Of a stretch of 60,975 nt of DNA, positions 8,395 through 40,557 are shown one piece after another. A program made the position numbers and the translations under genes. Origin of the DNA: Patescibacteria group bacterium (GTDB lineage Bacteria; Patescibacteriota; Minisyncoccia; Minisyncoccales; JAHCRE01); NCBI GenBank assembly GCA_020148025.1, contig JAHCRH010000002.1, positions 1 to 60,975 on the forward strand, written 5' to 3'. Below the pieces are notes generated by a model, which made no database searches, had not been told where the DNA came from, and worked only from the letters and a program-made list of their open reading frames with translations. Each line of letters begins with the position of its first letter. Positions within the stretch are counted from its first letter, which is position 1.

Positions 8395-8420
8395 GGCACA
8401 CCTCTGTGTGCCTGTTTTTT
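8395..8420. terminator. Bidirectional terminator between convergent genes
   Basis: GGCACAC-CTCT-GTGTGCC followed by a T-run. Same stem sequence as the two RNA-module terminators. Confidence 0.65.
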
Positions 8421-9429: not shown

Positions 9430-9495
9430 GCCAGGTAAAGCGGGCTTATATCAGATAAGTCGATTTACCATCATTGTGCGACTATATCTATATTC

Positions 9496-9848: not shown

Positions 9849-9878
9849 TCTTTCACCTCCATTTTTTTGTGCTTCTAT

Positions 9879-9907
9879 TATATATACTCAAATAAAAAAT
9901 TTGTCAA
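9879..9907 (-). promoter_or_regulatory. Promoter (TTGACA-17-TATATA) with a tandemly duplicated -35 region
   Basis: Minus-strand TTGACA at 9902-9907 and again at 9920-9925, inside an 18-nt tandem duplication (AAAAATTTGTCAAGA-like unit, 9895-9930). Confidence 0.5.
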
Positions 9908-10039
9908 GAATAAAAAATTTGTCAAGATTAAACTAAAACCGTTAGTTCTTTACCCATCCGTAGCTTTAGCGGAGGAGGGCCTACCCCAACGGTTTTTTAT
10001 CGCATAATAAATATCGCACAATATAAACGCCGGGGAATG

Positions 10040-10438
10040 TTATTTAAATAATTCGCTCAGCGTTGCTGCGGCGCTCGGAGTATAATCCAATCCTTTCCAG
10101 TCATCTTTAGAAACCCATCTAAATTCAGTATGATCTTCATCTAATATAACTTCTCCGCTAATCGATTCAGCTCTAAAAGCATACACGGCTGTTTTGGTAT
10201 TTTCTTTCTTTCCGTGGGAATAGTAAAAAACATAAGAATAATCATCTAGGAGTTCTATTTCTAAATTAGTTTCTTCTTTTGCCTCCCTTTTTGCTGCCTG
10301 TTCTAAGCTTTCCTCGGTTTTAACATTTCCACCAGGTAGATTCCAGAGATTTGGAGAAACTTTGGAACGCGAGCTTCTTTTTAAAATAAGTACTCTATTT
10401 CGATTATCCGTAATAACAATGTTAACGCCTTTTTTCAT
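10040..10438 (-). CDS. NUDIX hydrolase
   Basis: Nudix box GGNVKTEESLEQAAKREAKEETNL. Confidence 0.85.
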   Translation of the reverse strand: MKKGVNIVITDNRNRVLILKRSSRSKVSPNLWNLPGGNVKTEESLEQAAKREAKEETNLEIELLDDYSYVFYYSHGKKENTKTAVYAFRAESISGEVILDEDHTEFRWVSKDDWKGLDYTPSAAATLSELFK

Positions 10439-10444
10439 ATTCTA

Positions 10445-10478
10445 ATTCTACCAAAAAATCGCCGTCCAGGCGATTTTT
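10445..10478 (-). repeat. A-family terminator-promoter module (representative)
   Basis: The minus strand reads AAAAATCGCC-loop-GGCGATTTTTTGGTAGAAT. Other copies: 11292-11320, 12839-12868, 13916-13950, 16046-16080, 18629-18666, 19379-19407, 24907-24937, 25667-25696, 46768-46798, 47786-47820, 48109-48139. Confidence 0.8.
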
Positions 10479-10496
10479 GATATATCTCTTAAAGTT

Positions 10497-11153
10497 TTAT
10501 TCTTTTCCTAAGCGTTTATAATTCCTTTTATAATTTCGTGGATTTTTAAGATAATTATCAATGGCTTTGACATAATCACTTGGTCTTTGATCTGCTTTCA
10601 CGTAGTAATCTTCCATCCCCGCATCTATGGCATCCTCAATCGTTGTTTCCGCGTCAAGAATGCCAAGTGCGATTATAGGGATATCTTTAGTTTTTTCATC
10701 TTTTTTTAACAACTTTGTCACTTCAATACCATTAATACCGGGCAAAATAATATCCATGGAAATAATATCTGGTTTTTCTTCAGCGATCTCTCGCACTAAT
10801 TCTTCAGAGCCAGAATCAAATGTTTTAATTTCAAACCCAGCCTTTTGAAATTTCTCTGTAAAAATATCTCTAATGAAAGGGTCGTCTTCAATCATTATAA
10901 TTTTCTTACCATTGCTGGTAGCAATTTTCTTCTTTGGTGGTTTTGATCTTTCCAGTGGTTTTTCTTCGGGTTTTCTCTTCGCTTCTTTAAACTCTATTGG
11001 CTTTGGTTTTTCGTATTCAATCGGGCGCCTTACTAATTCAGTCTCTAACTTTTCGATCCTTTCCTTGAATCCAGAAATCTCTCTCGAACGAGAGATTATA
11101 ATATAAATCAGACAAATAACTATTACTATTAAGATAATCTCGAATATGGTCAT
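10497..11153 (-). CDS. Membrane-anchored response-regulator receiver protein
   Basis: N-terminal TM helix, then a charged linker and a REC domain (IIMIEDDPFI ... DIISMDIILPGINGIE ... PIIALG). No output domain. Confidence 0.8.
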   Translation of the reverse strand: MTIFEIILIVIVICLIYIIISRSREISGFKERIEKLETELVRRPIEYEKPKPIEFKEAKRKPEEKPLERSKPPKKKIATSNGKKIIMIEDDPFIRDIFTEKFQKAGFEIKTFDSGSEELVREIAEEKPDIISMDIILPGINGIEVTKLLKKDEKTKDIPIIALGILDAETTIEDAIDAGMEDYYVKADQRPSDYVKAIDNYLKNPRNYKRNYKRLGKE

Positions 11154-11478
11154 CTTTATTTGCTTTTACGCCTTTTAAGGCTTGCCTAAGCTACCTTCTT
11201 GCCTCATTTTAACTTATTTCCAAGAATTTTCCCAGTATTTTTATACCCTATTATACCGCGTCCGCCCGAAGCTCGCAAGGAGCGAAGGAGGACCAAAAAA
11301 TCGCCTTTCAGGCGACTTTTAATCAGGGCCGAACTCCTGTCAAGTGGAAAAATACCACTCCCCTACAGATTCCACACTGACAAAAAACTAAAAGAATAAG
11401 GAATAAAAAAATAGGCGCACCGAAGTGTACCTTTGATTATGAAGATCTAAGTTGTTAAAGGTGCTATGAGAAAAGACT

Positions 11479-11871: not shown

Positions 11872-12109
11872 TATTAAATAATTAAAAAACCGTTAGTTCC
11901 CTACCCTAACAGTTTTCTCTCACCTATGAAATGTCGCACAATATTAAGATAAAAATAAAAATTGCCCAGCGCTGGGCTTTTTTGGTTTCTGCTCCATCTG
12001 TGCGACGATGTTAGAACCTGTTTTATTTATAGATTGTAAAAATAAAATCCCTCAAAATCGAGAGATTTTATTAAATCAAGGAAAAACGAAAAAGAAAAAG
12101 GGAATTCAT

Positions 12110-13851: not shown

Positions 13852-13989
13852 ATTATTTTCTTAAATTTCAAAGATGCTAACTCGACCTTTTATTTTTTAA
13901 ACTTTTCGTCATCTCATTCTACCAAAAAATCGCCGTTTAGGCGATTTTTTATGTGAAAATTATACCTCTGGGGATAATTTATTTCTAGA

Positions 13990-15396: not shown

Positions 15397-15569
15397 ATAG
15401 TTATTAAGAGAAATTTCTGATAATGAGACCAGACGCTGATTTGATGTTTTAATTATAGCTTTAAAACATGAACTTTCTATGAAGAAAATTTCAAATAAAA
15501 AACGGGTAGTTCCCCACCTTAACGGTTTTCTCTTGGGCGGCGGGCGGAGATTAAAAGTTTACCGAAAAA

Positions 15570-18549: not shown

Positions 18550-18713
18550 GTCTTTTAGGAAAAAAAGATAAATTTATTATATCAAACCCCGAATGAAAAA
18601 TGGATGAAGAAATTTTACTATATATTTTATTCTGAAACCCAAAAAATCGCCGTTTAGGCGATCTTTTACGAGCTCGGGGTCTTGGACGGTGTTAGAACCT
18701 GCTTGGTGAAAAG

Positions 18714-21148: not shown

Positions 21149-21292
21149 AAAAAATTATTAGATTTCTTTCTATTAGCAAATATATTTTATTGTGTCAAGG
21201 AAAGAAAAAATCCGATGAAATCCCTCAGACGAAAAAACTGCCCAGCGATAGGCTTTTGTTTGGCTCCGCCGCGCGCTGAGCAAAATAAAAAA

Positions 21293-21350
21293 CCGTTAGT
21301 TCCCTACCCTAACGGTTTTGCCTGTCAAATAATATACCTTAGCGACATTA
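21293..21350 (+). repeat. Junction repeat J1 (C-family hairpin plus degenerate arm-spacer-arm site)
   Basis: CCGTTAG-TTCCCTACC-CTAACGG (21293-21315), then ...TATACCTTAGCGACA. It lies in a divergent intergenic region, so it cannot terminate either flanking gene. Confidence 0.6.
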
Positions 21351-21410
21351 AGGTGTCCTAGCGCCATCCGCAATTCAAAAATTATTATAATTCTGGAAAA
21401 TAAGGAGTAT

Positions 21411-21482
21411 ATGGCAATGATTAAGGAGAAACTGTTGGAAATTAAGAGATTTTATAAGGGCTTAAGGTTCTCCTATCAATAA
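21411..21482 (+). CDS. Possible 23-aa upstream micro-ORF
   Basis: AAGGAG SD 4 nt before the ATG: MAMIKEKLLEIKRFYKGLRFSYQ. TATAAT at 21386-21391. Purely speculative. Confidence 0.2.
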   Translation: MAMIKEKLLEIKRFYKGLRFSYQ

Positions 21483-21512
21483 AAATTACAGGGTTTAAAT
21501 TTGGGTTTAATC

Positions 21513-21521
21513 TGGTATAAT
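21513..21521 (+). promoter_or_regulatory. Extended -10 promoter TGGTATAAT of the MTase gene
   Basis: An exact TGnTATAAT 30 nt upstream of ATG 21552. Confidence 0.5.
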
Positions 21522-21551
21522 GTATTAATAAATAAGACCGCACAAATTAAA

Positions 21552-23456
21552 ATGAACGGGATAGAAAAAGAAATTAATTACTTAATTGACAAATTCGGCA
21601 TAAAAAAAGAAAGGGCAATAATTTTAAGCTACTCTTTGCTCCTAAGAGATTATTTCCTGAATAATCTAGACAAACGGTATATGCCAAGAATTGAAAGTTT
21701 GATAGATTCACAGGTGGGATTTAGGATTGAAGATTATGACATACCTGATTTGATTATTAACGAGAATTTAAAAGAAACCCTAAACAATGGGGGGATAGAT
21801 ATAATAGGAATTTCTTACAATAAAATAATTGATAAAGAGCTAAGAAAGATTTTTGGCAAATTTTATACGCCCATTCCTTTAGTTGAACATGTATTGGATT
21901 CAATAAATTTATCTAAAAAACCGAATGGAACAGTTATGGATTTAGCTTGTGGTGCGGGGGTTTTTCTTTCCGCTGCAGTAAAAAGGTTAATTAGGCTAAA
22001 TTCTAGGCTAAATAATGAGGTTCTGTTAAATAAAATCATAGAACAAATTTATGGAATAGACATTGACGCTACTGCATGCACCTTAGCTAAATTAAGTTTG
22101 TTGGTATCAACTTTTCCTTTGTGGAAAAACATTATTCCCAAAAGAGATTTAGAAATTAAATTCAATATCTTTTGTAAAAATTCGTCACTCATTCCTCAAG
22201 GGCAAGTTTCATTATTTAAAACGGAAAGTAATAAACTCATTGAAAAATTTGACTTTGTTATAGGTAATCCGCCTTATATTGAGGCCAAAAAACTACCCAT
22301 TAAAGATAAAAAGATTTGTAGAAGAAATTTCCCAGATATAGCAAAGGGTGCATTTGATATATATATTTGTTTTATCGGCTTGGGCTTGAATCTTTTAAAA
22401 GAGGGAGGATATTTGGGTTTTGTTTTGCCAAATAAATTTTTAGTAGCGAAATATGCATCCCACATAAGAAAAAAGATTTTAGAAAATTATCACTTAACTG
22501 AAATTTGTGATATATCCAATCTAAAATATTTTGAAGGAACAGATGTTTATCCAATACTTTTAGTCGTTAAAAATAAAAAGGGAAAAGCCAAAATTAAAAC
22601 GATAAGCGGTCTAGAAAACAGGGATATGTTTGAGTCAAAAAAAATCAAATATATTAAAGTTGCACAAGAAAAATATAAATTATTAAATAAAATATTGCCT
22701 TTCTATTGTTTTGAAAAAGAAATTGACAAAAAAATACTATTTAAATTAATAAATGGAAAACAAAATAAATTGAGTGATTTTTTAGAAATTAAAACTACAG
22801 TATCTTTTCATGCTAAAGGACTAAGAGAAAAATATGTATCAAAAGACATAGACTCAAAGTATAGATACAAGTATCTAGGTGGGAAAAGCTATTCAAGGAA
22901 AAATGAAGTAAGAGCTTATCGTGTTGAATGGGATGGATATTATATCAATTATGATAATTTAGTTTTAAACAAAATAAATAATCCACTTCCACCGATTTCT
23001 AATTTCGAAAAGCCCAAAATTATATTCTGCCAGCATGCAAAAAGAATGTTAGCCTATACAGACATAAAAGGAGAGTGGGTCACAAAAGATGTTTTCCCAA
23101 TAGCGTTTCTGAAAGACAATGATGTTACTAAAACTTATTATTATACTGGCTTCTTAAACTCTAAAATTTTTTCTTTTATATATGGGGTAATTTACAAGGG
23201 AATACAAATTAGTGAGGGTTATTTTCATTTTCTCCCCAGCTTCTTGTCAGTAATTCCAGCCCCAGAAGAAAATAAATTAATAATAAAAAAAGTCGCACAA
23301 ATAGTGCAAAAATTACAAAAAAATAAAAGGATAGAAAAAAAATTAACGGAGAAAATTGATAAGCTCTTTTATAATTCTTTTAAATTAACCAAAGATGAAA
23401 TAGCCCGAGTAGAAATATATAACAAAAAATATCTAAACAAGTTTATAAGCCAGTAA
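21552..23456 (+). CDS. N6-adenine DNA methyltransferase (Eco57I/TaqI-like gamma class)
   Basis: FGKFYTP, motif I MDLACGAGVFL, motif IV VIGNPPYIEAKK, and a long C-terminal TRD. The tracked TTG start (21501) is replaced by the first ATG downstream of the promoter. Confidence 0.85.
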   Translation: MNGIEKEINYLIDKFGIKKERAIILSYSLLLRDYFLNNLDKRYMPRIESLIDSQVGFRIEDYDIPDLIINENLKETLNNGGIDIIGISYNKIIDKELRKIFGKFYTPIPLVEHVLDSINLSKKPNGTVMDLACGAGVFLSAAVKRLIRLNSRLNNEVLLNKIIEQIYGIDIDATACTLAKLSLLVSTFPLWKNIIPKRDLEIKFNIFCKNSSLIPQGQVSLFKTESNKLIEKFDFVIGNPPYIEAKKLPIKDKKICRRNFPDIAKGAFDIYICFIGLGLNLLKEGGYLGFVLPNKFLVAKYASHIRKKILENYHLTEICDISNLKYFEGTDVYPILLVVKNKKGKAKIKTISGLENRDMFESKKIKYIKVAQEKYKLLNKILPFYCFEKEIDKKILFKLINGKQNKLSDFLEIKTTVSFHAKGLREKYVSKDIDSKYRYKYLGGKSYSRKNEVRAYRVEWDGYYINYDNLVLNKINNPLPPISNFEKPKIIFCQHAKRMLAYTDIKGEWVTKDVFPIAFLKDNDVTKTYYYTGFLNSKIFSFIYGVIYKGIQISEGYFHFLPSFLSVIPAPEENKLIIKKVAQIVQKLQKNKRIEKKLTEKIDKLFYNSFKLTKDEIARVEIYNKKYLNKFISQ

Positions 23457-24357
23457 AGTTTTCCTCGGTAAATATTTCCTCAAGCCTCTTCATCTCTTCT
23501 TCTCCAATTTTTCCAATGGATTTTAACCATCTCATTAAATAAAAATATTGATTTGGATGCAACATGGGCTTTATTACTCCCTTTAAATTAATTTCTCCTT
23601 TTAAAAACTTAACGATATCGCCTGAAATAACCCCTCTTCCAGCCAAATCTATTGCCATTCTCATTACGTCAACAGAGGTTAAGTTTAAACCTCCTTTTTT
23701 CTTAATATCTGCCTCTATGTCTTTTGGTTCTAATTTCAACAAATCCTTGGGATCCGGAAATCCATTTAAATTTTTATTATAAAATTCAATCTCATGACTA
23801 CGATATGGAAACCAACTTATACCTCGCTCACTCAAAGAACCCGGTGGTAAGTAGACTCCCTCTCTCTTAACACGTTCTTTTGAAACCCATCCACATATGT
23901 ATAATTTCCATTTCTTCTGTCTTGGCGTTCCAGGTAATTCTCCATTTTTGGGGGTTTCTAGGTGCGTCATAAGATAGATGTCAGTATCTAGTTCTCTATC
24001 ATAAACCTGACGGGCGAAAAGATTGTGCTTAGCTTCCCTTGGCATACCATCGCTTCCAGCATATAACTCCTGAAAGGGCCGAATTCCACCCCTACACTTC
24101 ACATCAACTTTGACGCCGCTTTTTAATGGAAAATCAAAACCTTTAGGATGGGTGATGGGGTCTATCTCGGGAAGCCCCAATTCTTTTCTGACAACTATTT
24201 CTGCTAAAGCACCGTAGGTTTGTTCTCTTGGTCTACCGGCTTCTGGTCCCCTTACAAGAACCTTTTCTACAAACTGCACTGCTTTGAGGCGTAATTCGTA
24301 TCCTTTTGGTCCCGCTAGACCGATCTCAATTGGTTTTGGTGTGGAATATTTATACAT
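23443..24357 (-). CDS. Putative PD-(D/E)xK restriction endonuclease partner
   Basis: GFDFPLKSGVKVDVKCRGG fits D...(D/E)xK. The gene is convergent with the MTase gene and overlaps its 3' end by 14 nt. Confidence 0.45.
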   Translation of the reverse strand: MYKYSTPKPIEIGLAGPKGYELRLKAVQFVEKVLVRGPEAGRPREQTYGALAEIVVRKELGLPEIDPITHPKGFDFPLKSGVKVDVKCRGGIRPFQELYAGSDGMPREAKHNLFARQVYDRELDTDIYLMTHLETPKNGELPGTPRQKKWKLYICGWVSKERVKREGVYLPPGSLSERGISWFPYRSHEIEFYNKNLNGFPDPKDLLKLEPKDIEADIKKKGGLNLTSVDVMRMAIDLAGRGVISGDIVKFLKGEINLKGVIKPMLHPNQYFYLMRWLKSIGKIGEEEMKRLEEIFTEENFTGL

Positions 24358-24441
24358 AAATATTGATCCTGTTTTAATTTATCACCTTTTTACTTAAAAA
24401 ACAAGCTGGTTTAAAATAGAAATCGCCCAGCGATGGGCTTT

Positions 24442-24900
24442 TTATTCCTTGACTATTTTTAGAATTTTTTTACCAAAACTTTCTGCTTCCTTTAAATTTT
24501 CTTCATTTGGTCTACCTTTATTAAAAATCCTCGGCCCAAAGTTTCCGATAAGTCTACTTAAACCAAGGCAGGAAAACCCATCAATAAAAGAAATCCCCTT
24601 GTTTCTAAGTTTTTCTTTTATAATTTTGAAAGTTCTTTTGTCTCCCCAAATGTGCATCGTACAAAAAGCAGCTCCTTTTTTACCAGACATAACAGGAAGC
24701 TCATCTAAGAATTTTTCTACCTTTTTTGCAGGACCAAAACCGTGAACTGGCGTTCCTATACATAATAAATCGTAATCCTTTATATCTTCTATTTTTACAT
24801 CTTCAATTTTTTTTAGTTCAGAACTTAACCCTCTAGCAATTGCCTTAGCAACTTTTTCTGTATTTCCAGTTTCAGAATAATATAGAACTAACGCCCTCAT
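24442..24900 (-). CDS. Flavodoxin-like protein
   Basis: MRALVLYYSETGNTEKVAKAIA FMN-binding loop. Leaderless-type TGATAAAAT lies 6 nt from the ATG. Confidence 0.8.
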   Translation of the reverse strand: MRALVLYYSETGNTEKVAKAIARGLSSELKKIEDVKIEDIKDYDLLCIGTPVHGFGPAKKVEKFLDELPVMSGKKGAAFCTMHIWGDKRTFKIIKEKLRNKGISFIDGFSCLGLSRLIGNFGPRIFNKGRPNEENLKEAESFGKKILKIVKE

Positions 24901-24981
24901 ATTGTTATTTTATCAAAAAATCACCGATAAGGCGATTCTTTACTCCCCCGGAGGGATGAATCTAGAACCTGTTTGGTGAAA

Positions 24982-25659
24982 TTATTTACGTAATTTTCTT
25001 TGAACTTTTTCGCTTGTTAACTCTTTAATCGCATCAGTAGCAATCCATTTAGCAGTTCTGTGATTATTTTTTTGAATTTCTTTAGCGAATTTAACTGCCT
25101 TTTTATTTAAATTTAAATTTCTTTTACCGATTTGCCTCAATGCCCAATTAACTGCTTTTTTTACAAAGTTTCTCTCATCCATTGAGTGTTTCTTTATTAT
25201 TGGGAAAAATTTATCAAAATCTTTATCTTTGGAGTTTTTATCGTGGACTGAAAGTGTCGCCATCAGAACAAAGCCTGCCCTTTTAACAAATTCCTCTTTT
25301 CTTTTACTCCATTCAAATGCTTTTTTGTAGGCAAATTTAGTTTTATCAAAAAGATTACCACATACTTGATCACAGACATCCCAGGAATCAAAATCTCTTA
25401 CCCATTTTTCCATTTGTCTTTCAGTTACCTCACTGGGTTTATCAATAAATCCAGCAAGAATTCTAGCCTCATGAATTTCTGAGTCCCATAACTGTTGGGC
25501 GAGCTTATGACTTTTTCCAATTTTTTTTGCGATATCTCTCAGAACATAAACAGAAATACCTAAAGTATTTTTTGGATTAATGCCGAACCTTGCCATTCCA
25601 GCTACATTCTTAGGATTGGAGAGCGATTTTAATTTTTTGATGATTTCTCTATATTTCAT
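24982..25659 (-). CDS. DNA alkylation repair protein (AlkD-like HEAT-repeat glycosylase family)
   Basis: GMARFGINPKNTLGISVYVLRDIAKKIGKSHKLAQQLWDSEIHEARILA is a typical family pattern. Confidence 0.75.
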   Translation of the reverse strand: MKYREIIKKLKSLSNPKNVAGMARFGINPKNTLGISVYVLRDIAKKIGKSHKLAQQLWDSEIHEARILAGFIDKPSEVTERQMEKWVRDFDSWDVCDQVCGNLFDKTKFAYKKAFEWSKRKEEFVKRAGFVLMATLSVHDKNSKDKDFDKFFPIIKKHSMDERNFVKKAVNWALRQIGKRNLNLNKKAVKFAKEIQKNNHRTAKWIATDAIKELTSEKVQRKLRK

Positions 25660-25750
25660 ATCTATTATTCTATCAAAAAACCGCCTTCTTGGAGATTAAT
25701 ATACCTTTTCCGACAATTATTGCCCAGTGATGGGCCTTTTTAAATTCTAG

Positions 25751-26434
25751 CTAAAAGTTTGATGCTTTCTTAAGCCACTGGTCGAATTTACAATCTGGAC
25801 TATGGGGAGGCGGCGTGTTTTTTCTCAAAAGAGTAACTGCGTCTTTAAAAAGTCCTGGGATATCCGAAGGGTTCGTTTCAATTTCATGGAGTTCTTTTCG
25901 AAAAGGTAATCTGTCTTCGAAACCACTTTCTTTATTAACTATATAAAAAGCTAAATAGCCCTTCCGGGGAGTTAAAAAGCCATTTTTTTCTAAAAGAAAA
26001 GTGTAAGTATCCATCTGCAACTGAAAACGATCATACACTTTTGCGACTTTACTACCGGTGGACTTATAATCAAGTGGAGCTAATTTATCTTCGGGAAACT
26101 CTAAAATATCATCAACTGCTCCAAAAAGAGTTGCGTCTAATTCAGAATCATAATAACGTATCCCTACAAAATTACTTCGCCATTGATTTAATAAATCTTG
26201 GTTTGGAAAAAGTTTGGCATTAACATTATTGGCAATAAGCAAAGGATGGGGTTCTCCTTTTGCTCTATACCCATCGAACTCTTGCTTTAAAAGAACGTCA
26301 ACGGCCATATTAAGAGCATAAGGATAAGGTGGCGGCCTTTTGATCCCTTGTCTTTTGTTCAGCCAAAAACAATGAGGGCATTCCAAAAATAAATTTAAAG
26401 AATTAGGCGAAAGCTGAATTGGTTTATTGTTCAT
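25751..26434 (-). CDS. PD-(D/E)xK nuclease family protein (Cas4/RecB-like fold)
   Basis: N-terminal LSPNSLNLFLECPHCFWL; core GAVDDILEF...LAPLDYKS (D ... D-x-K). Confidence 0.6.
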   Translation of the reverse strand: MNNKPIQLSPNSLNLFLECPHCFWLNKRQGIKRPPPYPYALNMAVDVLLKQEFDGYRAKGEPHPLLIANNVNAKLFPNQDLLNQWRSNFVGIRYYDSELDATLFGAVDDILEFPEDKLAPLDYKSTGSKVAKVYDRFQLQMDTYTFLLEKNGFLTPRKGYLAFYIVNKESGFEDRLPFRKELHEIETNPSDIPGLFKDAVTLLRKNTPPPHSPDCKFDQWLKKASNF

Positions 26435-26495
26435 AATAATTATCTATCTTCAAAATAACTTCATTTTTAAAAAAATTCAAGAAAGAAACAAAAAA

Positions 26496-26550
26496 CCGTT
26501 AGTTCCCTACCCTAACGGTTTTCTTTGTCTTGCAAGGTGTATTGTGCGAC
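26496..26550 (+). repeat. Junction repeat J2 (C-family hairpin plus TCTTGCAA-N6-TTGTGCGA site)
   Basis: CCGTTAG-TTCCCTACC-CTAACGG at 26496-26518, then TCTTGCAA GGTGTA TTGTGCGAC at 26528-26550. Segment 26499-26550 matches 30405-30456 outside the 6-nt spacer. Confidence 0.7.
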
Positions 26551-26745
26551 ACTTTTATTGGTTCGAATCCTATCCCTCTTCCCTAATCGGTCTCGAACCC
26601 GTGTTTTAGGGGAAAAATATGGGCTTTTTGAGGCTATCCCAGAATGCCCCTCTCGGTCGGGGTGTTTTAACCTAAAATGAGACAAATGAGACAGTTTAAA
26701 AAGTAATAAAAAATAGAGTTGACTCCATTTTTATTTTTGTTATTT

Positions 26746-26774
26746 TTGACTAAAATATATTGAGGATATATAAT
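26746..26774 (+). promoter_or_regulatory. Consensus promoter of the SIR2-DUF262 operon (TTGACT-17-TATAAT)
   Basis: TTGACT at 26746-26751, exact 17-nt spacer, TATAAT at 26769-26774. The leader is about 100 nt with no obvious SD. Confidence 0.6.
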
Positions 26775-26879
26775 TATTATGATGTAATCAAGAAGGATCT
26801 GTGAATACAACTTACTGGAAAAAAAGGAAAACTACAATTCATATCTTCTATCGATATATTTATTATCCTTCTCCTTTTC

Positions 26880-27872
26880 ATGTATAAGATTGTATATTTA
26901 TTTGGTGCAGGCGCAACTCATGCTGAAGTTGTTAATCTCAGGAAAGATCTTTCTGTAAAATTTCTAAAGGAAAATGGTTTATTGATAAATGATGTTTCTA
27001 AGAGAGTTATTAAAGAAGCGCAAGGTAATTCAAGATATTTAAAAAAGATTAAAATGGTTTCAGCGGCTGAGGGTTCTTTGAACATTGAATTATTGATAAG
27101 TCTGTTTGAAAAAAATCGTATCCCAGACGCCGAGTATAAAACTGACCTCCTAAAAAAATTAGTTAAAGACGATATCCTAGATAAATTAACTGATTATCGA
27201 CTAAAAAGATTTTATTTGCATAAAGCTTTATTAGAACTTCATTCGAAAATCAAAGATAAAGAAAAATTATTTGGTATTATTTCTCTGAATTATGATCATA
27301 TCCTGGATGAAGCATATAAGACTATATTTGAGCATGAACCAAATTACTGTTTTTCTTTAGAAGAATGCAAAAATATCCCTTTATTGAAATTGCATGGTTC
27401 TTTTAATTGGAAGAATATTATAATATACGGAAGAAAAAAGACTGTCCCAATCATTCCTTTTGGAATAGACAAAAATTATTTACAATTACCATATAACTTC
27501 ATTTGGGGTCGTGCAATGGAGATCTTAATAGATTGTGATGTACTTCGAATAATTGGTTGTTCACTCAATCAAAATGATGTTGGACTAATTGACTTACTCT
27601 TTAAAGCGCATCTAGCAAAAGGAAAACCGTTTGAGATTCAAATAATAGATTTCCAAAAAGTCGGTGCATCGATAAAAGGAAACTATGGTTTTTTCCCAGA
27701 AATTATAAAACCAAAAGATCTCGAGGATGCCTTAATAGCCGACGAGTCAATTCATGACCCCAGTAAGGGTGGAAATCCTTTTAAAATATGGTTAAGGGCA
27801 AAAGGGATGAAGATGTTAAAAGAAGAAGTTATTAGAAAAACCAAATATTTGAAAAAAGTTTTTGATTTATAA
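26880..27872 (+). CDS. SIR2-like (SIR2_2 family) protein, stand-alone
   Basis: YLFGAGATHAE (Rossmann GAG), ISLNYDHILDEAY, LLKLHGSFNW (catalytic His), LRIIGCSLNQNDV. No fused TIR, SLOG, STAND or HerA partner domain. Confidence 0.75.
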   Translation: MYKIVYLFGAGATHAEVVNLRKDLSVKFLKENGLLINDVSKRVIKEAQGNSRYLKKIKMVSAAEGSLNIELLISLFEKNRIPDAEYKTDLLKKLVKDDILDKLTDYRLKRFYLHKALLELHSKIKDKEKLFGIISLNYDHILDEAYKTIFEHEPNYCFSLEECKNIPLLKLHGSFNWKNIIIYGRKKTVPIIPFGIDKNYLQLPYNFIWGRAMEILIDCDVLRIIGCSLNQNDVGLIDLLFKAHLAKGKPFEIQIIDFQKVGASIKGNYGFFPEIIKPKDLEDALIADESIHDPSKGGNPFKIWLRAKGMKMLKEEVIRKTKYLKKVFDL

Positions 27873-27889
27873 TCACAGGCATAAAAAAT

Positions 27890-29005
27890 ATGTCAAAAAA
27901 AAATAAGAAGAAAAGAAAAAGCAAATCGGAGAAGAGAAGGAGTACTTTGCTACTTACAGTTAAGGAATTTATTAATAAATATGTCTATCGAATTGATTTA
28001 GATGCAGATTATCAAAGAGAAAAAGTTTGGTCAAAAAAAGAGCAGGAATTACTATTGGATTCGATACTTAGAGATATTGACATACCTAAAATTTATCTTG
28101 CCAAAGTTGAGGGCAATAAACAATTCGATTTTGAATGCATTGATGGAAAACAACGCATGATAACTCTATTAAATTATTTTAAACCAGATCCAAATGAAAA
28201 GAATTCTTTAATAGTTGAGGTTGCAGGAGGGAAATATACTTACAAACAATTAAAAAAAGAATATCCTAAAGCAGCAAAAAAAATTGAAAACTACGAGCTG
28301 ACTTTTATCATTTACAAAAAAATTGATGATGATCTTATCAGAGAAATATTTAGAAGATTACAATTAGGAATTAGACTGAATTCCGGTGAATTATTAAAAA
28401 CTTATACGGGTGCTATTAGAGATTTTATCTACAAAGAAATTGGAAATAAGGGTCCCTTCTTTAGATACACAAAACTATCTGAAAAAAGATTTTCAAGACC
28501 ATTTACCTTAGCTCAAATTTGCATTAATTCATTTAAACGCATAGAAACAGGTGATTTTGTCAGAGCAAGATTAGTAGATATCCAAGATTTTTTCGAAGAT
28601 AATTATAACCTAAAAAAGGACGATGAAAATTTAATTCGAATAAAAAAGGTTCTTAAAATTATGGATGCTGAATTTGGAGAAGATGCTAAAGACATTTCAA
28701 GCAGAGGGATTGCTGTAACAGCATATTTTTTTACTGAGAATTTATATCTAAAAGAGAAAAAAGGTCTTATTCCAAAATTTGTTGAATTCTATCTTAAATT
28801 ACTAGATGAAATCAAACATAATATGAAACTAATAAAGAGTTATGAAAAACCGGAAAATATTAATTTAATGGAGGAGTTCCATAAATATATCTTACAAGCT
28901 TCAGTTGAACCATACTCCATTCGAAGAAGACATAACTTCCTCAAAAAGGCTTTTGATTATTACTTAAATCCAGAGACAAAAGGAAAAATTATTGGTAGTA
29001 AATAA
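27890..29005 (+). CDS. DUF262 (ParB/Srx-like, GmrSD N-terminal type) protein without the DUF1524/HNH half
   Basis: DADYQREKVWSKKEQELLLDSILRDIDIPKIYL and IDGKQRMITLLNYF (the DGQQR motif). The C-terminal ~170 aa are helical and unassigned. Confidence 0.75.
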   Translation: MSKKNKKKRKSKSEKRRSTLLLTVKEFINKYVYRIDLDADYQREKVWSKKEQELLLDSILRDIDIPKIYLAKVEGNKQFDFECIDGKQRMITLLNYFKPDPNEKNSLIVEVAGGKYTYKQLKKEYPKAAKKIENYELTFIIYKKIDDDLIREIFRRLQLGIRLNSGELLKTYTGAIRDFIYKEIGNKGPFFRYTKLSEKRFSRPFTLAQICINSFKRIETGDFVRARLVDIQDFFEDNYNLKKDDENLIRIKKVLKIMDAEFGEDAKDISSRGIAVTAYFFTENLYLKEKKGLIPKFVEFYLKLLDEIKHNMKLIKSYEKPENINLMEEFHKYILQASVEPYSIRRRHNFLKKAFDYYLNPETKGKIIGSK

Positions 29006-29009
29006 TTTT

Positions 29010-30254
29010 TTACGAATTTTTCCAAATAATGATGCTTTCTCTTGAGGGCTTTCTTTTAAATTTTTTCATTTGCTGAGCACTATTTCCTCTGTATCTGGCA
29101 ACAAATATGATATCAGTTGATAATCCTGTTTGTTCACCTATCTCAGCAAGTATTTCATCAACAGGAATATTAACACCTCCAAAACGAACATTGCTTATAA
29201 CAAGCCCTATCTTCCCGTTCTTTTTTAGATGTTTTTGCATCTGCAATAATGAAAGATACATATCTTCAAAATATCCTTCAATCATCTCGGGAATTTTTGA
29301 ATTGTTCAAACCTGCCTTTTTAACCTTAGTAATTATTTCGTCAATGGTTGAAGGTTTTTTATAACCATTAGACTTAAACTTCTTTCTTGCTTCGACATGA
29401 GATCTAAGTGTGTCATATCTGATTTGTTTTAATTCATCATTATCCCCAACAAAATTAAATATTAATTCAAGCCCATATATTCTCGTATAATCATGCCTAT
29501 TTGGATATGGTGGGGAAGTAATTATTGCATCAAATTTTCTCTTTGTTGAAAATCTTCTTGAATCTGATATTTTTGCATTTACCTTTGCATTAGTGAATTT
29601 TGAATTATCATTGAATTCTTCAACATCTTGAATCATTACTTCAACTTTTGATAGAAATTTCGGATATACTTCTTTTCCAGAAACATTTTTTTCATCAATT
29701 CGTAAAAAACCTCCCGCCTTTGAAGTATTGCTTACCGATTCAAGTATGCTTAGTAATCCCAACATATAGAAATCTCTCACTTTGAGATCTCGAATCATAT
29801 TAATCTTGTACTTTAGATAAAGTAATTCGTCTTTTACATCGTTACTAAAAGCCTTCTCTATAATTTTAATATCGGGCAAATAAGTATTCTTTACTGTTAA
29901 TTTACCATTTCTATTAAAATTCTTAAGTCGTTGTCTTAGTTTACAGGGCTCATACGTTCTCGTTTTGACGTTAGATAAAAATACTGAAAAAGGAAGTATA
30001 TCAAAACCTTTTGAATTAATACCCAACTCTTTGCATGCAAGTAATGTTGTGCCACTACCACAGAAAGGGTCTAGAACCCATGAACCCTTACTAAGTTTGA
30101 ATTCTTCAATTAGCTTTTCAACCAACCCTTTCGAGTAGCTATGTTTAAAGACATGCCAGTTATATATTGGTTTACCGCGGTCACTAAAAGGAGATATGAG
30201 TGGCCCATACTCATTTGTCTTCATAATAAGAGGAGCGATAGCCATATGTAACAA
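29010..30254 (-). CDS. N4/N6 DNA methyltransferase (motif I before motif IV)
   Basis: VLDPFCGSGTTLLA (motif I) ... AIITSPPYPNRHDY (motif IV). Its stop is 4 nt from the stop of the DUF262 gene (convergent). Confidence 0.8.
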   Translation of the reverse strand: MLHMAIAPLIMKTNEYGPLISPFSDRGKPIYNWHVFKHSYSKGLVEKLIEEFKLSKGSWVLDPFCGSGTTLLACKELGINSKGFDILPFSVFLSNVKTRTYEPCKLRQRLKNFNRNGKLTVKNTYLPDIKIIEKAFSNDVKDELLYLKYKINMIRDLKVRDFYMLGLLSILESVSNTSKAGGFLRIDEKNVSGKEVYPKFLSKVEVMIQDVEEFNDNSKFTNAKVNAKISDSRRFSTKRKFDAIITSPPYPNRHDYTRIYGLELIFNFVGDNDELKQIRYDTLRSHVEARKKFKSNGYKKPSTIDEIITKVKKAGLNNSKIPEMIEGYFEDMYLSLLQMQKHLKKNGKIGLVISNVRFGGVNIPVDEILAEIGEQTGLSTDIIFVARYRGNSAQQMKKFKRKPSRESIIIWKNS

Positions 30255-30404
30255 TAATGTTTTTTAAAAGACTTAAAGAGTGAGCGAGAGAGCTTGATAG
30301 AAAATAAAAAATGGAATTTCATCTAACAAGTTTTAAACACACCCCATAAAAACTTGTTTTAAAATCGACCTTTTTAAAATTGCCCAGCGACGGGCTTTTT
30401 GAAA

Positions 30405-30456
30405 TTAGTTCCCTACCCTAACGGTTTACTTTGTCTTGCAAGATACCTTGTGCGAC
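30405..30456 (+). repeat. Junction repeat J3 (truncated C hairpin plus TCTTGCAA-N6-TTGTGCGA site)
   Basis: TTAGTTCCCTACCCTAACGGTTTACTTTGTCTTGCAAGATACCTTGTGCGAC. The 5' arm of the hairpin is replaced by a B-family hairpin (30382-30395). Confidence 0.7.
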
Positions 30457-30509: not shown

Positions 30510-31808
30510 TTATGGGGACGATAATAAATCTCTAAGCTCTAGGGCATCATCAATGTTAAATTTCTTTTTACAGTAAGGGCATTCCATTGTTCTATCCAAC
30601 GATGACTTTCTTTTATTATGTAATTCTCTAGTGACCTCTCTTCTACAGAATGGACAGAAGAATTGTTCTCCACTAGGGTAGATGGCTCCTGAACCAGCTA
30701 TACCTAAATCACCGGGCCTAAAAGCTCTTGTAATATCTTCGCCCCTAATACCACTAACGCCTGTATCGTAGATTCTCTCAAAACCTCTATAATCACCGGG
30801 CCTAAAAGCTCTTGTAATATCTTTGCCCCTAATACCACTAACGCCTGTATCGTAGATTCTCTCAAAACCTCTATCGGGGCTGATAACTCCAACGCCAGCA
30901 TCAGAGATTCTATCAAGTCTGAAAACACCAGTATCAGGTCTGTCATATTCACTTCTCTCTTTAATTTCTTTTAAAGCTTGCTTTCTAACTTTCTTTTTGA
31001 TCTTTACATATTTTCCAGCTAATTCCATAAAATTATCTAATCGATACATATAAAAACTCATTTTAGTCTTTTCTACAAATTCATTGATAAGCTCTGGTCT
31101 TGGACCAATAATCTGATTTTGAGAAATTAACCACCAGTCTTCTTCCTTTTCGTCAGTAATCAAAATAACGCCTTTGTTTTCACTCGCAGCTTTATCAATC
31201 ATTTGTTTCCACATTACTAAGTCTCCATACTTTCTATTTCCTCTTTTTTCTTTCCTATCCTTGTAACCAGGTGGCACCTTTTCCTCGTACCTTTCCTTTC
31301 CTTCTCGGTAAATCTTTTTAAGATCCTTGCTAGAATACGGAGAACCAACTTTAGATTTAAATAGGCTAGAAATTTTTCTAATAATTTTGTCGTCGCTCAG
31401 TAGTTTCTTATACTTTTTCTTGCTAGCGTTTAACTCTTTTCTAATCTCTTTAAAAATCTCAGAAAGATCTTCCATAGTATCTTCCCTTATAAGATGACGC
31501 TTCCTGCGGTCTTTAAAGTCTTGTTCAATTTGATTAAGGGACTTAAAGATTAACTCGTGGGACTTTAACTGTTTTTCTATTACGTTTAGGCGATTCTTAA
31601 GACATTCTGAAGAAGCCTGATGAGACAACCAAATTCTTTCCTTAATTTTTGGCAAGGTTAAGATCCGAATAAATTCTTCTCTAGTTTTATCGGAGTACCT
31701 ATAAAGGTTCAATAAAACACTAGCATCGAAAGTAAAAATACAGCTATTCCATAAGCTTTTGAATTGTTTTTCGGATAGCTTGAAATATCCAGGAAAAGTT
31801 TTTTTCAT
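30510..31808 (-). CDS. PIN-like (DUF4935-type) nuclease-domain protein with a 28-aa tandem repeat and C-terminal zinc ribbon
   Basis: N-terminal FTFDASVLLNLYRYS, later ITDEKEEDWW. Repeats GFERIYDTGVSGIRG(K/E)DITRAFRPGD occur twice. C-terminal CPFC...CPYC. Confidence 0.6.
   Translation of the reverse strand: MKKTFPGYFKLSEKQFKSLWNSCIFTFDASVLLNLYRYSDKTREEFIRILTLPKIKERIWLSHQASSECLKNRLNVIEKQLKSHELIFKSLNQIEQDFKDRRKRHLIREDTMEDLSEIFKEIRKELNASKKKYKKLLSDDKIIRKISSLFKSKVGSPYSSKDLKKIYREGKERYEEKVPPGYKDRKEKRGNRKYGDLVMWKQMIDKAASENKGVILITDEKEEDWWLISQNQIIGPRPELINEFVEKTKMSFYMYRLDNFMELAGKYVKIKKKVRKQALKEIKERSEYDRPDTGVFRLDRISDAGVGVISPDRGFERIYDTGVSGIRGKDITRAFRPGDYRGFERIYDTGVSGIRGEDITRAFRPGDLGIAGSGAIYPSGEQFFCPFCRREVTRELHNKRKSSLDRTMECPYCKKKFNIDDALELRDLLSSP
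30708..30875 (-). repeat. 84-bp tandem duplication inside the PIN-like gene
   Basis: Units 30708-30791 and 30792-30875 are 82/84 identical. A degenerate third unit follows (about 30876-30950). Confidence 0.9.
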
Positions 31809-32119: not shown

Positions 32120-32225
32120 GTTTTTTATAAAATTTATAGATTTTTCTTAATTTTTTCTTTCATAGATTGTTATCCGTCTCGGTCGCTCGAACCGAGCACA
32201 AGCCTGCTCCGGGGGACGGACGATG

Positions 32226-33092
32226 TTAGAACTTGTGCTTCCCGTGACTTATTAAATCTACAAGGCTAGAAGGACTCCCGTCCCAAAAAATTACATTAGT
32301 CAATTTGTGTAAATTAGCCTTTGTAGAATATGATAGTTTACTTATACCTATATCTTTTAGTTCAAAAATGGGCTTCTTAGAGAACTTAAATCTATGTGGC
32401 CACTTTTCGCTTGAACCGTGTTCCCATCTCTCTTTTTCATTATAATAATAACCCTCTGTAACTCTAAATACAATAATTTTCTCAATTTTGCCCTTGAATT
32501 TATTAAATGGAACTCTGCCACCAGTTACTGCCCTCCCCTTTCTTCTCAATGGATACCATGGCCCAATAAATGCAATCAAATCCTCTTTTTTTATATCTCT
32601 AAACCTATTTAATTGTCTGAAATTCTTAGGTACGCCCCATGTTTGTTTTTCAATCTCCTCATAAAAATGAATGTTTGCAGATTTATTTAAATAATAAAAC
32701 CATAATTTAGGAAATTTTCTCTCAGAAATTTCTTTAACTACTTCTTTCAATGACTCGGATAATATTCTATTAGAATTTTTGCTAAACCAATTTTCAAAGT
32801 CTTTTCTCTTAATTATTATTTGTTCAAGTTCAAAATTTTGATTTTGCTCAAAAACAATGATAAAGCCATTATCTTCCTTTAAAACTGAAATGTCATGATT
32901 AAAATCACTAGTTTTCCATTCAATTTCTGCTGGAACTTCGTTTCCGTCTTCCAGTAAACAATAAACATCTGGATATTGGTCAAAAGTAGGATTAAATTTA
33001 GATTTAATTATCTGTAGACCTCTGATAGAATATTTTTTACAATTTTCTACCCAATACTTCTGTAGTATTTTTTCATCAACCCATTTTGGCAT
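32226..33092 (-). CDS. PD-(D/E)xK nuclease-like N-domain fused to a PUA/EVE-like C-domain (candidate modification-dependent nuclease)
   Basis: YPDVYCLLEDGNEVPAEIEWK (PD ... ExK). C-terminal WFYYLNKS..TWGVPKNFRQLNRFRDIKKEDLIAFI ... IEKIIVFRVTEGYYYNE ... WPHRFKF resembles EVE/ASCH-type beta-barrel signatures. Confidence 0.4.
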   Translation of the reverse strand: MPKWVDEKILQKYWVENCKKYSIRGLQIIKSKFNPTFDQYPDVYCLLEDGNEVPAEIEWKTSDFNHDISVLKEDNGFIIVFEQNQNFELEQIIIKRKDFENWFSKNSNRILSESLKEVVKEISERKFPKLWFYYLNKSANIHFYEEIEKQTWGVPKNFRQLNRFRDIKKEDLIAFIGPWYPLRRKGRAVTGGRVPFNKFKGKIEKIIVFRVTEGYYYNEKERWEHGSSEKWPHRFKFSKKPIFELKDIGISKLSYSTKANLHKLTNVIFWDGSPSSLVDLISHGKHKF

Positions 33093-37882: not shown

Positions 37883-37911
37883 TTTTAAGTTTTAAATTAT
37901 CGCCTGTCAAC
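37883..37911 (-). promoter_or_regulatory. Promoter of the HTH/Type IIG operon (TTGACA-17-TAAAAT)
   Basis: Minus-strand TTGACA at 37906-37911 and TAAAAT at 37883-37888. An M motif at 37950-37958 lies upstream. The TGTCAA..TTGGCAATTTTTGACA block recurs at 40385-40410. Confidence 0.55.
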
Positions 37912-38148
37912 TTTTGGCAATTTTTGACAGAATTCTCAACGTGTCTAAATGTCGCACAATATTGAAACTGGGCTTGAAGTACAAATTGAAAAAGATACTA
38001 ATTTGTTCGGATATATATTGTCCGAATTGTCCGAACTACTAAATGTCGCGCAATATGTCTTGTGAGGCTATTCTGTAAATAAAAAAAAGCGGTTAGAAAC
38101 CGCTATTTTGGAAAGAACTATTATAGAAAATGGAAAGAAAGAAAAAGA

Positions 38149-38995: not shown

Positions 38996-39063
38996 GGTTC
39001 TGCACCGCTTTCTTATTTCCAAAATGGCCTCACGCAATATATCTTGTGCGATATTGAACAAAC

Positions 39064-40176: not shown

Positions 40177-40557
40177 GATAGCAAAGACCTTTATTTGTTA
40201 AAATGCCCTTATTTGGGCATTTTTTATTTCATGGAATATGTCTTGCGAGACTATGTTTAGATATAAAAAATATCCCGAGAGTTCTTCTCTTGGTCGTTCC
40301 ATTTTTGGCAAATCGCGAATAGTAAATTTTCTCATAAATTTAATTCATTTTCGCATAAAAAATCGGCTTTTTCAAGCCGATTTTTTTGTCAATTTTGGCA
40401 ATTTTTGACACCTCCCTAAACGTCGCACAAATGTCTCGTGAGACGATATTTACGGAGAAATAAAACGCCCGAGAGAAAAACTCTCGGGCGGGAGGGCGGA
40501 GATAAAAAAAAGGGGCATTAAGCCCCGAAAATTTGAAGAAAAAAAGAAAGAAAAGAG

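Follow-up and report, generated by a model that had tools for sequence, protein, structure and literature searches.

The DNA examined here, a stretch of 60,975 nucleotides from contig JAHCRH010000002.1 that we call the window (overall GC content 35%), is the terminus region of a Nealsonbacteria-type chromosome of the Patescibacteria, or Candidate Phyla Radiation (CPR). Up to about 8.3 kb its genes (S41 protease, L9, PyrG, UppS) lie on the plus strand, and from 8.4 kb nearly all lie on the minus strand. The GC skew flips sign at this switch in gene orientation, at 8.4-9.5 kb, and the cumulative skew reaches its maximum at 8-10 kb; because skew and gene orientation converge there, we take 8.4-9.5 kb to be the replication terminus. 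A tyrosine recombinase gene, xer, lies at this point together with a site that is probably the chromosomal dif, and a variable island extends from there to 49.4 kb. The island holds three composite elements, J1, J2 and J3, each a hairpin followed by two arms around a 6-nt spacer, and these elements and their kin around xer are our subject. Judged by its sequence, the arm-spacer-arm part of J is best read as an Xer-type site, of one family with dif, with one-armed half-sites and with a class of two-armed sites that we call K-type (Table 1).

The product of xer matches the NCBIfam models for XerC (219 bits) and XerD (218 bits) over its full length, below their equivalog cut-offs. The XerS model gives 110 bits (cut-off 267), and the integron integrase models TIGR02249 (80 bits, cut-off 265) and NF011946 (51 bits, cut-off 435) match only the C-terminal 70 residues. 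These matches and the domains of the protein bear out the Xer-like recombinase that a sequence-only reading of the window had placed here. Homologues share 79-91% amino-acid identity across more than 120 protein clusters, the pattern that would be expected of a housekeeping Xer at a replication terminus.

Our comparison set consists of 80 loci from metagenomes whose encoded Xer relatives are 61-84% identical; these and the other genomes and contigs compared are numbered with L below. Aligning all occurrences of TTGTGCGAC in the window, L002 and L003 revealed a 9-6-9 site upstream of xer, and the same kind of site is found on the xer strand, 30-260 nt upstream of the gene, in 63 of the approximately 74 loci that have sufficient DNA there. 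The consensus of the clade is GTCGCACAA-TGTAGG-TWAAGCGAC, with a promoter 5' of the site; in distant loci it grades into TTCGCATAA-TTATAC-TTAAGCG. It shares 17 of 28 positions with the Escherichia coli dif, whose sequence we took from the citation in PMC3025954. We made a profile of 54 unique sites, and across the window it gave the copy upstream of xer as its sole match above 12 bits (37.6 bits). This dif overlaps the 5' leader of xer. Between dif and the start codon the leader also contains a long imperfect hairpin (9391-9432, GCAGATTCTTGCGACACTC / GAGTGTCCGCAAAATCTGC), which is kept in L084, includes arm-like TTGCGAC strings and may act as a regulator of xer.

The arrangement of dif and xer is of the single-Xer kind and resembles XerS/difSL, where dif lies immediately upstream of a single xer gene (PMC1914069). 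As in that system, and as in XerH/difH and archaeal XerA/dif, one Xer gene is seen in the window, with an asymmetric site directly upstream at the terminus, and, as in difSL, one arm is well conserved and the other looser (PMC1914069). In contrast to XerS/difSL, the protein is XerC/XerD-like by score, the sequence of the site is different, and inverted polar half-sites flank the unit. Our literature search found no dif/Xer system described for CPR bacteria, and no description of inverted polar half-sites that bracket dif and xer.

In a complete relative and in many of the metagenome loci, homologues of the genes at 49.8-58 kb of the window (GltX, MurG, FtsW, MurD) are located about 1 kb upstream of xer, and homologues of the genes at 0.4-5.3 kb downstream of it. 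Since these core blocks adjoin the xer unit in relatives, the interval from 9.5 to 49.4 kb is a variable island of about 40 kb; it is absent from them. The island is rich in defence genes: it encodes NUDIX, CYTH, MazG, LemA/DUF2207, several restriction-modification methylases, SIR2, a GmrSD-like protein, and PIN-like and Cas4-like PD-(D/E)XK proteins. A domain scan of its open reading frames of at least 80 aa (9.5-49.4 kb) detected no integrase, transposase or resolvase domain. Some of the island genes turn up one at a time in other loci, on one side of xer or the other; LemA-DUF2207, for example, is found downstream of xer in L086 and L021. In L079 the PDDEXK, DUF5661 and 83-aa genes lie downstream of xer, tightly packed and free of J elements, and J is therefore not intrinsic to these genes.

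The J elements enclose the genes that the sequence-only reading had listed, namely methyltransferase (MTase), PD-ExK, flavodoxin, AlkD-like and nuclease genes between J1 and J2, and SIR2, DUF262 and MTase genes between J2 and J3. J1 and J2 are both situated between divergent genes, and the blocks that adjoin them have a low GC content, about 30% next to J1 and about 29% in the SIR2 block. At the DNA level the SIR2-GmrSD-MTase block within J2-J3 has an 84% identical counterpart in another genome (L096 and L097), in unrelated surroundings, and the right end of this homology falls exactly at the B-type hairpin that abuts J3. SIR2 homologues are distributed over many phyla. An exact-protein look-up recovered one other assembly, L001, which is identical across J2-J3. 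The Patescibacteria contig recovered in this way is identical to the window over 11 kb except for a perfect 84-bp tandem duplication at 30707-30874 of the window (copies 99% identical), which adds 28 aa in frame to a PIN_8 gene; contig JAHCRG010000022.1, otherwise identical, has a single copy, and its PIN_8 protein has 404 aa, against 432 aa in the window.

All three J elements are present in one orientation, on the plus strand, at the positions given by the sequence-only reading. That reading assigned a 7-bp stem to each copy, which holds for J1 and J2; in J3 the 5' half of the stem has been replaced (GAAATTAG), 4 bp are left, and folding is at the level of shuffled sequence (z = -0.5). J1, described as a degenerate copy, indeed has degenerate arms, next to an intact hairpin. 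J2 and J3, described as nearly identical, have the same arms and share 89% identity over 57 nt (repeat family D17), but apart from the replaced stem half in J3 their spacers differ: four of the six differences between them fall in the 6-nt spacer (hypergeometric P = 5e-4, post hoc). The perfect arm of J2 and J3, GTCGCACAA on the xer strand and thus the reverse complement of TTGTGCGAC, is the left arm of dif. The second arm, TTGCAAGAC, keeps the outer GAC and an inner TT, and only 6 of the 9 arm positions are complementary; the arm-spacer-arm layout claimed earlier is there, but as an inverted repeat it is weak. The spacing of exactly 6 bp is found in J2, J3, the J elements of L084 and L086, the K-type sites at 38045 and 39029, and dif.

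Allowing for at most one mismatch, TTGTGCGAC occurs 20 times in the window against 4.2 expected, and none of 100 shuffles of the window reached 20. On the dif profile J2 scores 11.8 bits and J3 less than 8 bits; because these scores are low, what J has in common with dif is the left arm, the spacing and the outer GAC, and not the spacer or the inner part of the right arm. The link to Xer that the sequence-only reading drew from the architecture of the site is nevertheless strengthened, since arm, 6-bp spacing and orientation match the putative dif next to xer in 63 loci. We also considered the arms as a promoter; judged by inspection of the sequence, TTGCAA-N17-TTTTAT is weak in J2 and absent from J3, and the actual SIR2 promoter is at 26746-26774. 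A RusA remnant adjoining J2 was looked for and none was found.

The perfect arm also occurs alone, in half-sites of the form (CACC)TAATAAAT-GTCGCACAA-TATTAA. In most loci one such half-site lies just 3' of the xer stop codon on the xer strand, and a second one is found 0.3-1.1 kb upstream on the opposite strand, so that an inverted pair with inward-facing arms brackets a unit composed of a promoter, a small gene, dif and xer. Half-sites flank the xer unit in nearly all relatives and recur across the island of the window. Their polarity is pronounced. Counting unique exact GTCGCACAA sites and leaving out xer itself and the site adjacent to it, 22 upstream sites are on the minus strand and 5 on the plus strand, against 49 plus and no minus sites downstream (Fisher P = 1e-14). 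Of the five exceptions, two are dif sites that have been displaced or have degenerated, and three are J sites (J2 and J3 of the window, and that of L086); as the remaining exceptions are all J, the J sites are the sole sites other than dif that are oriented like dif. The window copies at 11933, 37951, 38045, 40422 and 49350 are all on the minus strand. No inversion polymorphism of the xer unit between its half-sites was seen: core block B is upstream and core block A downstream in every locus seen.

Table 1. Xer-related features of the window (xer strand: minus).
Feature	Position	Strand	Description
xer	8419-9375	-	tyrosine recombinase; Pfam Phage_integrase and SAM-like domain
Probable dif	9459-9482	-	xer strand: GTCGCACAA-TGATGG-TAAATCGAC; starts about 13 nt downstream of the xer -10 box
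J1	21293-21346		intact hairpin C (21293-21315) and degenerate arms (xer strand: GTCGCTAAG-GTATAT-TATTTGACA); degenerate arm CTTAGCGAC at 21338-21346
J2 hairpin C	26496-26518		CCGTTAG-TTCCCTACC-CTAACGG with A-tract and T-tract; bidirectional terminator-type
J2 core site	26527-26550	-	xer strand: GTCGCACAA-TACACC-TTGCAAGAC; same orientation as dif; on the plus strand, 8 nt after the stem-loop, GTCTTGCAA (26527-26535), GGTGTA (26536-26541), TTGTGCGAC (26542-26550)
SIR2-GmrSD-MTase block	26845-30373		horizontally shared unit inside J2-J3, GC about 29%
J3 truncated hairpin C	30405-30424		5' stem half replaced by adjacent B-type hairpin (30376-30404)
J3 core site	30433-30456	-	xer strand: GTCGCACAA-GGTATC-TTGCAAGAC; arms at 30433-30441 and 30448-30456, same as those of J2; plus-strand spacer GATACC
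Half-site	10013-10021	-	TTGTGCGAT; next to promoters and a variant of hairpin C (9939-9991); canonical half-site on the upstream side of the xer unit
Half-site	7600-7608	+	other side of xer, inverted relative to the copy at 10013; second copy at 6090-6098 (+)
Composite	11876-11947	+	hairpin C, 20 nt, half-site (GTCGCACAATATTAA); 76-90% identical to xer-flanking copies in other species
Half-site	37951-37959	-	upstream of HTH_17 defence operon
K-type full site	38045-38068	-	xer strand: GCCTCACAA-GACATA-TTGCGCGAC; spacer and context as at position 1057 of L086
K-type full site	39029-39052	+	CTCACGCAA-TATATC-TTGTGCGAT; between divergent genes
K-type site, 5-nt spacer	40422-40445	-	with half copy at 40249-40262 brackets remnant defence module
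Outermost half-site	49350-49358	-	adjoins conserved core genes (GltX, MurG, FtsW, MurD block)

The hairpin of the J elements, hairpin C, is a terminator-type hairpin and is the xer terminator in relatives, where it directly follows the xer stop codon about 20 nt 5' of the half-site and is flanked by an A-tract and a T-tract. The folding energy is -17.9 kcal/mol for the J1 hairpin (z = -4.3) and -18.8 kcal/mol for that of J2 (z = -3.7). Among 25 copies, one or more compensatory double changes are seen at six of the nine predicted pairs. J1 and J2 thus have the stem, T-tract and compensatory changes of a rho-independent terminator, and in J3 the stem is broken. The sequence-only reading had held that J1 and J2 are not simply terminators, given that they lie between divergent genes. 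They do lie there, but the hairpin is of the terminator type, and the argument fails because the plus-strand blocks adjoining J1 and J2 were inserted later. In L086 the J element with its hairpin stands 3' of a co-oriented gene and 5' of a promoter. The further hairpin copies reported earlier, at 11890-11912, at 15503-15527 and, with a loop insert, at 9939-9991, are all present. The window has at least four families of intergenic hairpins, of which hairpin C is one; no Rfam family covers the J elements or the hairpins. In L079 a LAGLIDADG-type homing endonuclease gene (8723-9292, GFVDGEGCF, recognised by eye) is located between the xer stop codon and the terminator and half-site.

J-type elements were found in two sister species, L084 (GTCGCAAAA-TACACC-TTGCAAGAC-AAAGAAAA-hairpin) and L086 (GTCGCACAA-TACACC-TTGTAAGAC-AAAGAAAA-hairpin), both with the spacer of J2. 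Across four copies in three species the conserved core comprises about 57 nt; it starts at the outer edge of the perfect arm, ends with the hairpin's T-tract and forms a conserved patch between unrelated flanks. The J element of L086 is found 813 nt upstream of xer and some 0.7 kb from dif, where it replaces the usual upstream half-site. It is the proximal end of an integrase-less 8-kb block (HTH_17, methylase, PLD, HATPase, RusA) that ends distally at a K-type site, GTCTCACAA-GACATA-TTAAGCGAC; no integrase, transposase or resolvase domain was found between the two. The HTH_17 gene of the window, whose product is 85% identical in amino-acid sequence to that of L086, adjoins the K-type site at 38045-38068, which has the same GACATA spacer. 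A remnant defence module at 40.4 kb, bracketed by the K-type site there, consists of an HTH operator and a truncated RadC N-terminus, and in L005, L006, L012, L062, L076, L081 and L086 arrays of two or three half-sites in the same orientation bracket small blocks. The earlier claim that J elements partition the island therefore stands in that they border variable DNA; they are neither the sole nor the main partitions, since half-sites and K-type sites do the same.

Loci that share stretches at 93-100% identity allow the breakpoints between strains to be placed. For L006 and L045, divergent sequence gives way to 99% identity a few bases beyond the arm of the half-site that lies downstream of xer. 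L014 and L076 share about 98% identity as far as about 5 nt before dif, diverge through dif and xer, are again about 99% identical over the xer terminator and the half-site, and are unrelated right after GTCGCACAA-TATT. In L057 and L061, 97% identity begins 12 nt before dif. In total, 4 of about 10 major internal breakpoints are within 15 nt of a site, at a site density of about 1 per 6.4 kb. Contig ends, too, lie near sites about three times more often than expected, by a crude expectation; contig L084 ends 330 nt past J, and the independent assembly L085 starts inside J. In the comparison of L014 with L076 (about 9850-11450) the flanks are 97-99% identical and the dif-xer alleles differ (Xer 81% versus 64% identical to the protein of the window), and the dif-xer unit itself seems to have been exchanged as a cassette.

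Among viral contigs, five matches to the dif-type pattern were found. The phage-like contig L103 (IMGVR_UViG_3300050014_000157; 32% GC) has genes for HNH endonuclease, RNA ligase and exonuclease. A 1.8-kb stretch of it that is non-coding contains an exact match to the dif type, GTCGCACAA-TGTACG-TTAAGCGAC, together with two half-sites (1000-1620), and there is no xer gene in the 11 kb examined. In L105 a tyrosine integrase gene lies 300 nt from a dif-type site. L103 is a candidate for a phage that uses the Xer of its host, a lead towards Xer-exploiting elements rather than a proof. The J-type pattern gave four viral matches, two in a phi29-like phage and one beside a terminase gene, all in non-integrative contexts; we do not count them because their number is about that expected by chance for a pattern that fixes 17.5 bases, a coarse estimate for a collection of uncertain size.

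We tentatively favour, at somewhat less than even confidence, the explanation that Xer-mediated recombination at J, K-type and half-sites captures and reshuffles the gene blocks. Under this explanation the single Xer gene would keep dif (GTCGCACAA-N6-TWAAGCGAC) in its own 5' leader, and a half-site would be an Xer-type arm GTCGCACAA followed by TATT, with variable DNA starting beyond TATT on both sides of the unit. J2 and J3 would combine the left arm of dif, a 6-bp spacer and the weak TTGCAAGAC with a terminator hairpin that insulates the next transcription unit. Xer would bind the arms of these sites, and a circular DNA with a compatible site could be captured at a site of the platform by site-specific recombination. 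Every capture would add a copy of the site, so that an array of blocks, mostly restriction-modification and defence genes, would build up beside dif; the conserved half would act like the attI of an integron. What we observe are the sites themselves, the identity they share with the site next to xer, their polarity, the variability of the island and the breakpoints at the sites; from these we infer the binding of Xer, strand exchange at J and the capture and excision of circles. A more elaborate form, which we regard as unlikely at present, is a gene-capture platform at the terminus that employs the housekeeping Xer: outward-facing, attI-like half-sites would bound the dif-xer unit on both sides, promoter-bearing blocks, largely of defence systems, would be inserted and shuffled, also between replichores, J and K-type sites would be the joints, and the half-sites might in addition have a part in terminus organisation, as XDS or Ter sites do.

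Several observations weigh against capture by Xer. The scores of J2 and J3 on the dif profile are low, and a match above 12 bits arises about 0.08 times per shuffled window. The second arm of J departs from dif at inner positions that are near-invariant in dif, and the spacers of J2 and J3 differ at four of six positions; classical tyrosine recombination requires matching overlap regions. J1, the closest to dif, is the most decayed of the three, and simple serial insertion at dif predicts the opposite. The orientation of the half-sites is inseparable from the orientation of the genes, and the half-sites at 6090, 7600, 39044 and 49350 lie 11-18 nt upstream of a -35 box, a position that would also suit a transcription factor site. 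The breakpoints at dif are at the outer edge of the site and not in the spacer; this suggests that the whole dif-xer unit moves together, and it fits homologous exchange as well as site-specific exchange. The left end of the homology of the SIR2 block is about 290 nt from J2, and the copy in L096 and L097 has no GTCGCACAA site within 10 kb, so that the SIR2 block can move without J. Finally, there was no evidence of excised circles or of presence/absence variants at J2 or J3; no empty-site variant is seen because L001, the sole other assembly, is identical there.

The principal alternative, in our view improbable yet deserving of serious weight, is that the Xer-arm sites serve an architectural or regulatory purpose and are not cassette junctions: polar TAAAT-GTCGCACAA-TATT half-sites would be recognised by a monomer of Xer, or by some other protein, which would organise the terminus or regulate and insulate promoters, and J2 and J3 would be back-to-back sites in modules of terminator, site and promoter that were copied by ordinary duplication. 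The strict polarity of the half-sites and their presence around xer in almost every relative would suit a conserved housekeeping role. Several lie close to -35 boxes in the orientation of the downstream gene, among them the one at 39044, whose neighbouring gene faces away from dif. The match of J to dif is confined to one arm, and the overlap of dif with the xer leader is what autoregulation would predict. There is also a precedent in Bacillus subtilis, where the XDS, as the papers citing them describe them, are XerD-binding sites in the terminus that are distinct from dif, are not needed for dimer resolution and unload SMC complexes (PMC11894783, PMC10945525). Going by those descriptions, the sites here resemble XDS as extra Xer-arm sites clustered in the terminus; in contrast, they are strictly polar, stand beside terminator hairpins and coincide with strain breakpoints. 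It is the last of these that an architectural role leaves unexplained, for the homology between near-identical strains breaks exactly at sites. The same-orientation copies that bracket variable blocks, the persistence of J as a conserved patch amid unrelated flanks, and the dif-type site and half-sites on a phage-like contig are likewise left without an explanation.

Exchange might instead proceed by homologous recombination through junction modules that share 50-100 nt (hairpins A, B and C with the Xer-arm motif) and would be retained for starting and ending transcription, with no site-specific step, which we consider distinctly less probable. Junction families are alike across unrelated gene pairs, in one case over 70 nt at 93% (D7), and the repeat shared by J2 and J3 begins within the hairpin and not at the arms. 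The breakpoints at the outer edge of dif, with the dif-xer unit moving whole, and the occurrence of the SIR2 block elsewhere without sites point in the same direction. However, 50-60 nt at 85-90% identity are a poor substrate, and neither the dif-like 9-6-9 layout nor the concentration of the J2/J3 differences in the spacer is explained. Moreover, the breaks at half-sites fall just past the arm and TATT, where a crossover of the Xer type would be expected.

That the J elements are plain intrinsic terminators with a chance repeat, or selfish repeats like repetitive extragenic palindromes (REP) or miniature inverted-repeat transposable elements (MITE), is very improbable and largely refuted. Hairpin C is terminator-shaped, with compensatory changes, and the window has many other hairpin families; yet the arm motif is about fivefold over-represented, identical to the xer-adjacent site and conserved across 80 loci. 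Many copies scattered over the genome, as in REP or MITE families, are not found. In an exact scan of one genome for each of 185,579 species representatives, the hairpin 20-mer had three matches in two other species, a complete 689-kb Candidatus Nealsonbacteria chromosome (one match) and a sister Patescibacteria bin (two matches). All are within about 5 kb of a xer homologue, and the hairpin is therefore tied to the xer neighbourhood and not dispersed.

The same reading had noted a tRNA T-arm-like fragment, GGTTCGAATCC (26560-26570), after J2, and this 11-nt T-loop-like string and the likeness of GTCGCACAA to the 3' end of tRNA-Lys (GGCGCACAA; 248-256, one mismatch) could be taken for attachment scars of tRNA-integrating elements; this is scarcely credible, since ARAGORN and Rfam, at gathering and permissive thresholds, find only the tRNA-Lys at 180-254 and place the string in no tRNA, whole or partial, the string is not conserved in the orthologous J of sister species and is probably due to chance, about four one-mismatch matches to the motif are expected by chance, and no tRNA-targeting integrase is present.

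Among known systems, integrative mobile elements exploiting Xer (IMEX; CTX-phi, TLC-phi and the gonococcal genetic island, GGI) resemble the island in that integrase-less accessory blocks adjoin the chromosomal dif, have dif-like sites oriented as dif at their borders and form arrays (PMC6744903). Dependence on the host Xer would also fit the finding that no recombinase was detected in the island. Unlike IMEX, J2 and J3 are separated from dif by 17 and 21 kb that include other blocks, they have a weak second arm and unequal spacers, phage and replication functions are absent, the cargo block is found elsewhere in a site-free setting, and no circular form was seen. Neither a free circular form nor an element that recurs at dif elsewhere was found, the SIR2 block being site-free in L096 and L097. 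The borders of pdif modules are formed by oppositely oriented XerC/D and XerD/C sites, both arms of which are well conserved. The dif module islands of Acinetobacter are similar to the present one in that accessory genes in multi-module arrays are separated by 28-bp Xer-type sites (PMC12907356). In contrast to pdif modules, the sites here are direct repeats (J1-J3 oriented as dif), many are one-armed, and the host carries a Xer with an adjacent dif. The similarity to an integron consists of a recombinase gene beside a conserved half-site, with variable, promoter-proximal cassettes beyond it and site copies between them. However, the Xer is not of the IntI type, there are no folded attC sites, which are imperfect palindromes of 57-141 nt with R''/L'' and L'/R' boxes (the junction hairpins have 7-11 bp stems and A and T tracts and lack a GTTRRRY core), the cassettes have their own promoters and terminators, and variable DNA is found on both sides of the recombinase gene. 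The island is not an integron.

Other repeated motifs share the region with these sites. Two paralogous non-coding regions of about 250 nt (6070-6325 and 7580-7873; segments 84% and 74% identical, no Rfam match) each contain a half-site, a TTGACA promoter and a strong terminator. They lie upstream of a winged-helix gene (6439-7527) and of a gene for a 117-aa protein (7990-8343), and could be leaders, riboswitches or small RNAs. Junction families A and B mark nearly every gene boundary of the island (10432-10481, 13903-13952, 46766-46835, 48107-48176 and about 20 more between 10 and 49 kb). Family A has the sequence ATTCTACCAAAAAATCGCC-N4-GGCGAT. Its coding strand reads as a hairpin and then TGGTAGAAT, an extended -10 box; the end of this box is often about 7 nt from the ATG, which suggests leaderless mRNAs. 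Family B is AAAATTGCCCAGCGACGGGCTTTTT, and A-plus-B pairs at unrelated genes reach 93% identity over 70 nt.

The HTH_17 gene (58-64 aa) leads restriction-modification and defence operons in many CPR genomes, and its promoter is overlapped by an inverted repeat, TGTCAAAAATTGCCAAAA(G/T)TTGACA (37895-37925 and 40385-40410 in the window, about 1260-1290 in L086, and in L088, L090 and L092); at the 40.4-kb copy only the truncated RadC N-terminus follows. This suggests that the HTH_17 protein and the inverted repeat are controller and operator. We also considered HTH_17 as a marker of Xer-exploiting elements. Its homologues in unrelated CPR contexts share the operator TGTCAAAAATTGCCAAAATTGACA and have no Xer-arm sites nearby, and we therefore regard it as a controller of defence operons rather than an element marker. 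A motif of about 33 nt ending in GATGTTAGAACCTGT (11989-12021, 18670-18702, 24940-24972, 32204-32236, and about 1010-1030 in L086) directly follows the stop codon of at least three unrelated minus-strand genes, with a fourth copy about 90 nt past a stop codon; one copy overlaps the Xer-arm-like CTGTGCGAC. Another motif, TCGACCTTT (AAAGGTCGA on the coding strand; 12440, 13880, 16720, 30365, 45830, and about 2930 in L090), is located 60-110 nt upstream of several island genes, and the homology between the SIR2 block and L096 ends just past one of its copies.

CPR bacteria, or Patescibacteria, have tiny genomes with few recognisable mobile elements, and the acquisition of defence and accessory genes in this group is poorly understood. 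The sequence GTCGCACAA-TGTAGG-TWAAGCGAC in the xer leader is a concrete candidate for the dif of a large CPR clade, and the comparative data reveal that variable gene blocks begin exactly at the sites related to it. If Xer drives this exchange, the island would be a chromosomal analogue of IMEX and dif modules, with an integrase-free turnover of defence islands in an uncultivated phylum. If Xer is not the driver, the half-sites remain candidates for sites that organise the terminus. The GTCGCACAA motif also marks the terminus in fragmented CPR assemblies and helps to explain why contigs break there.

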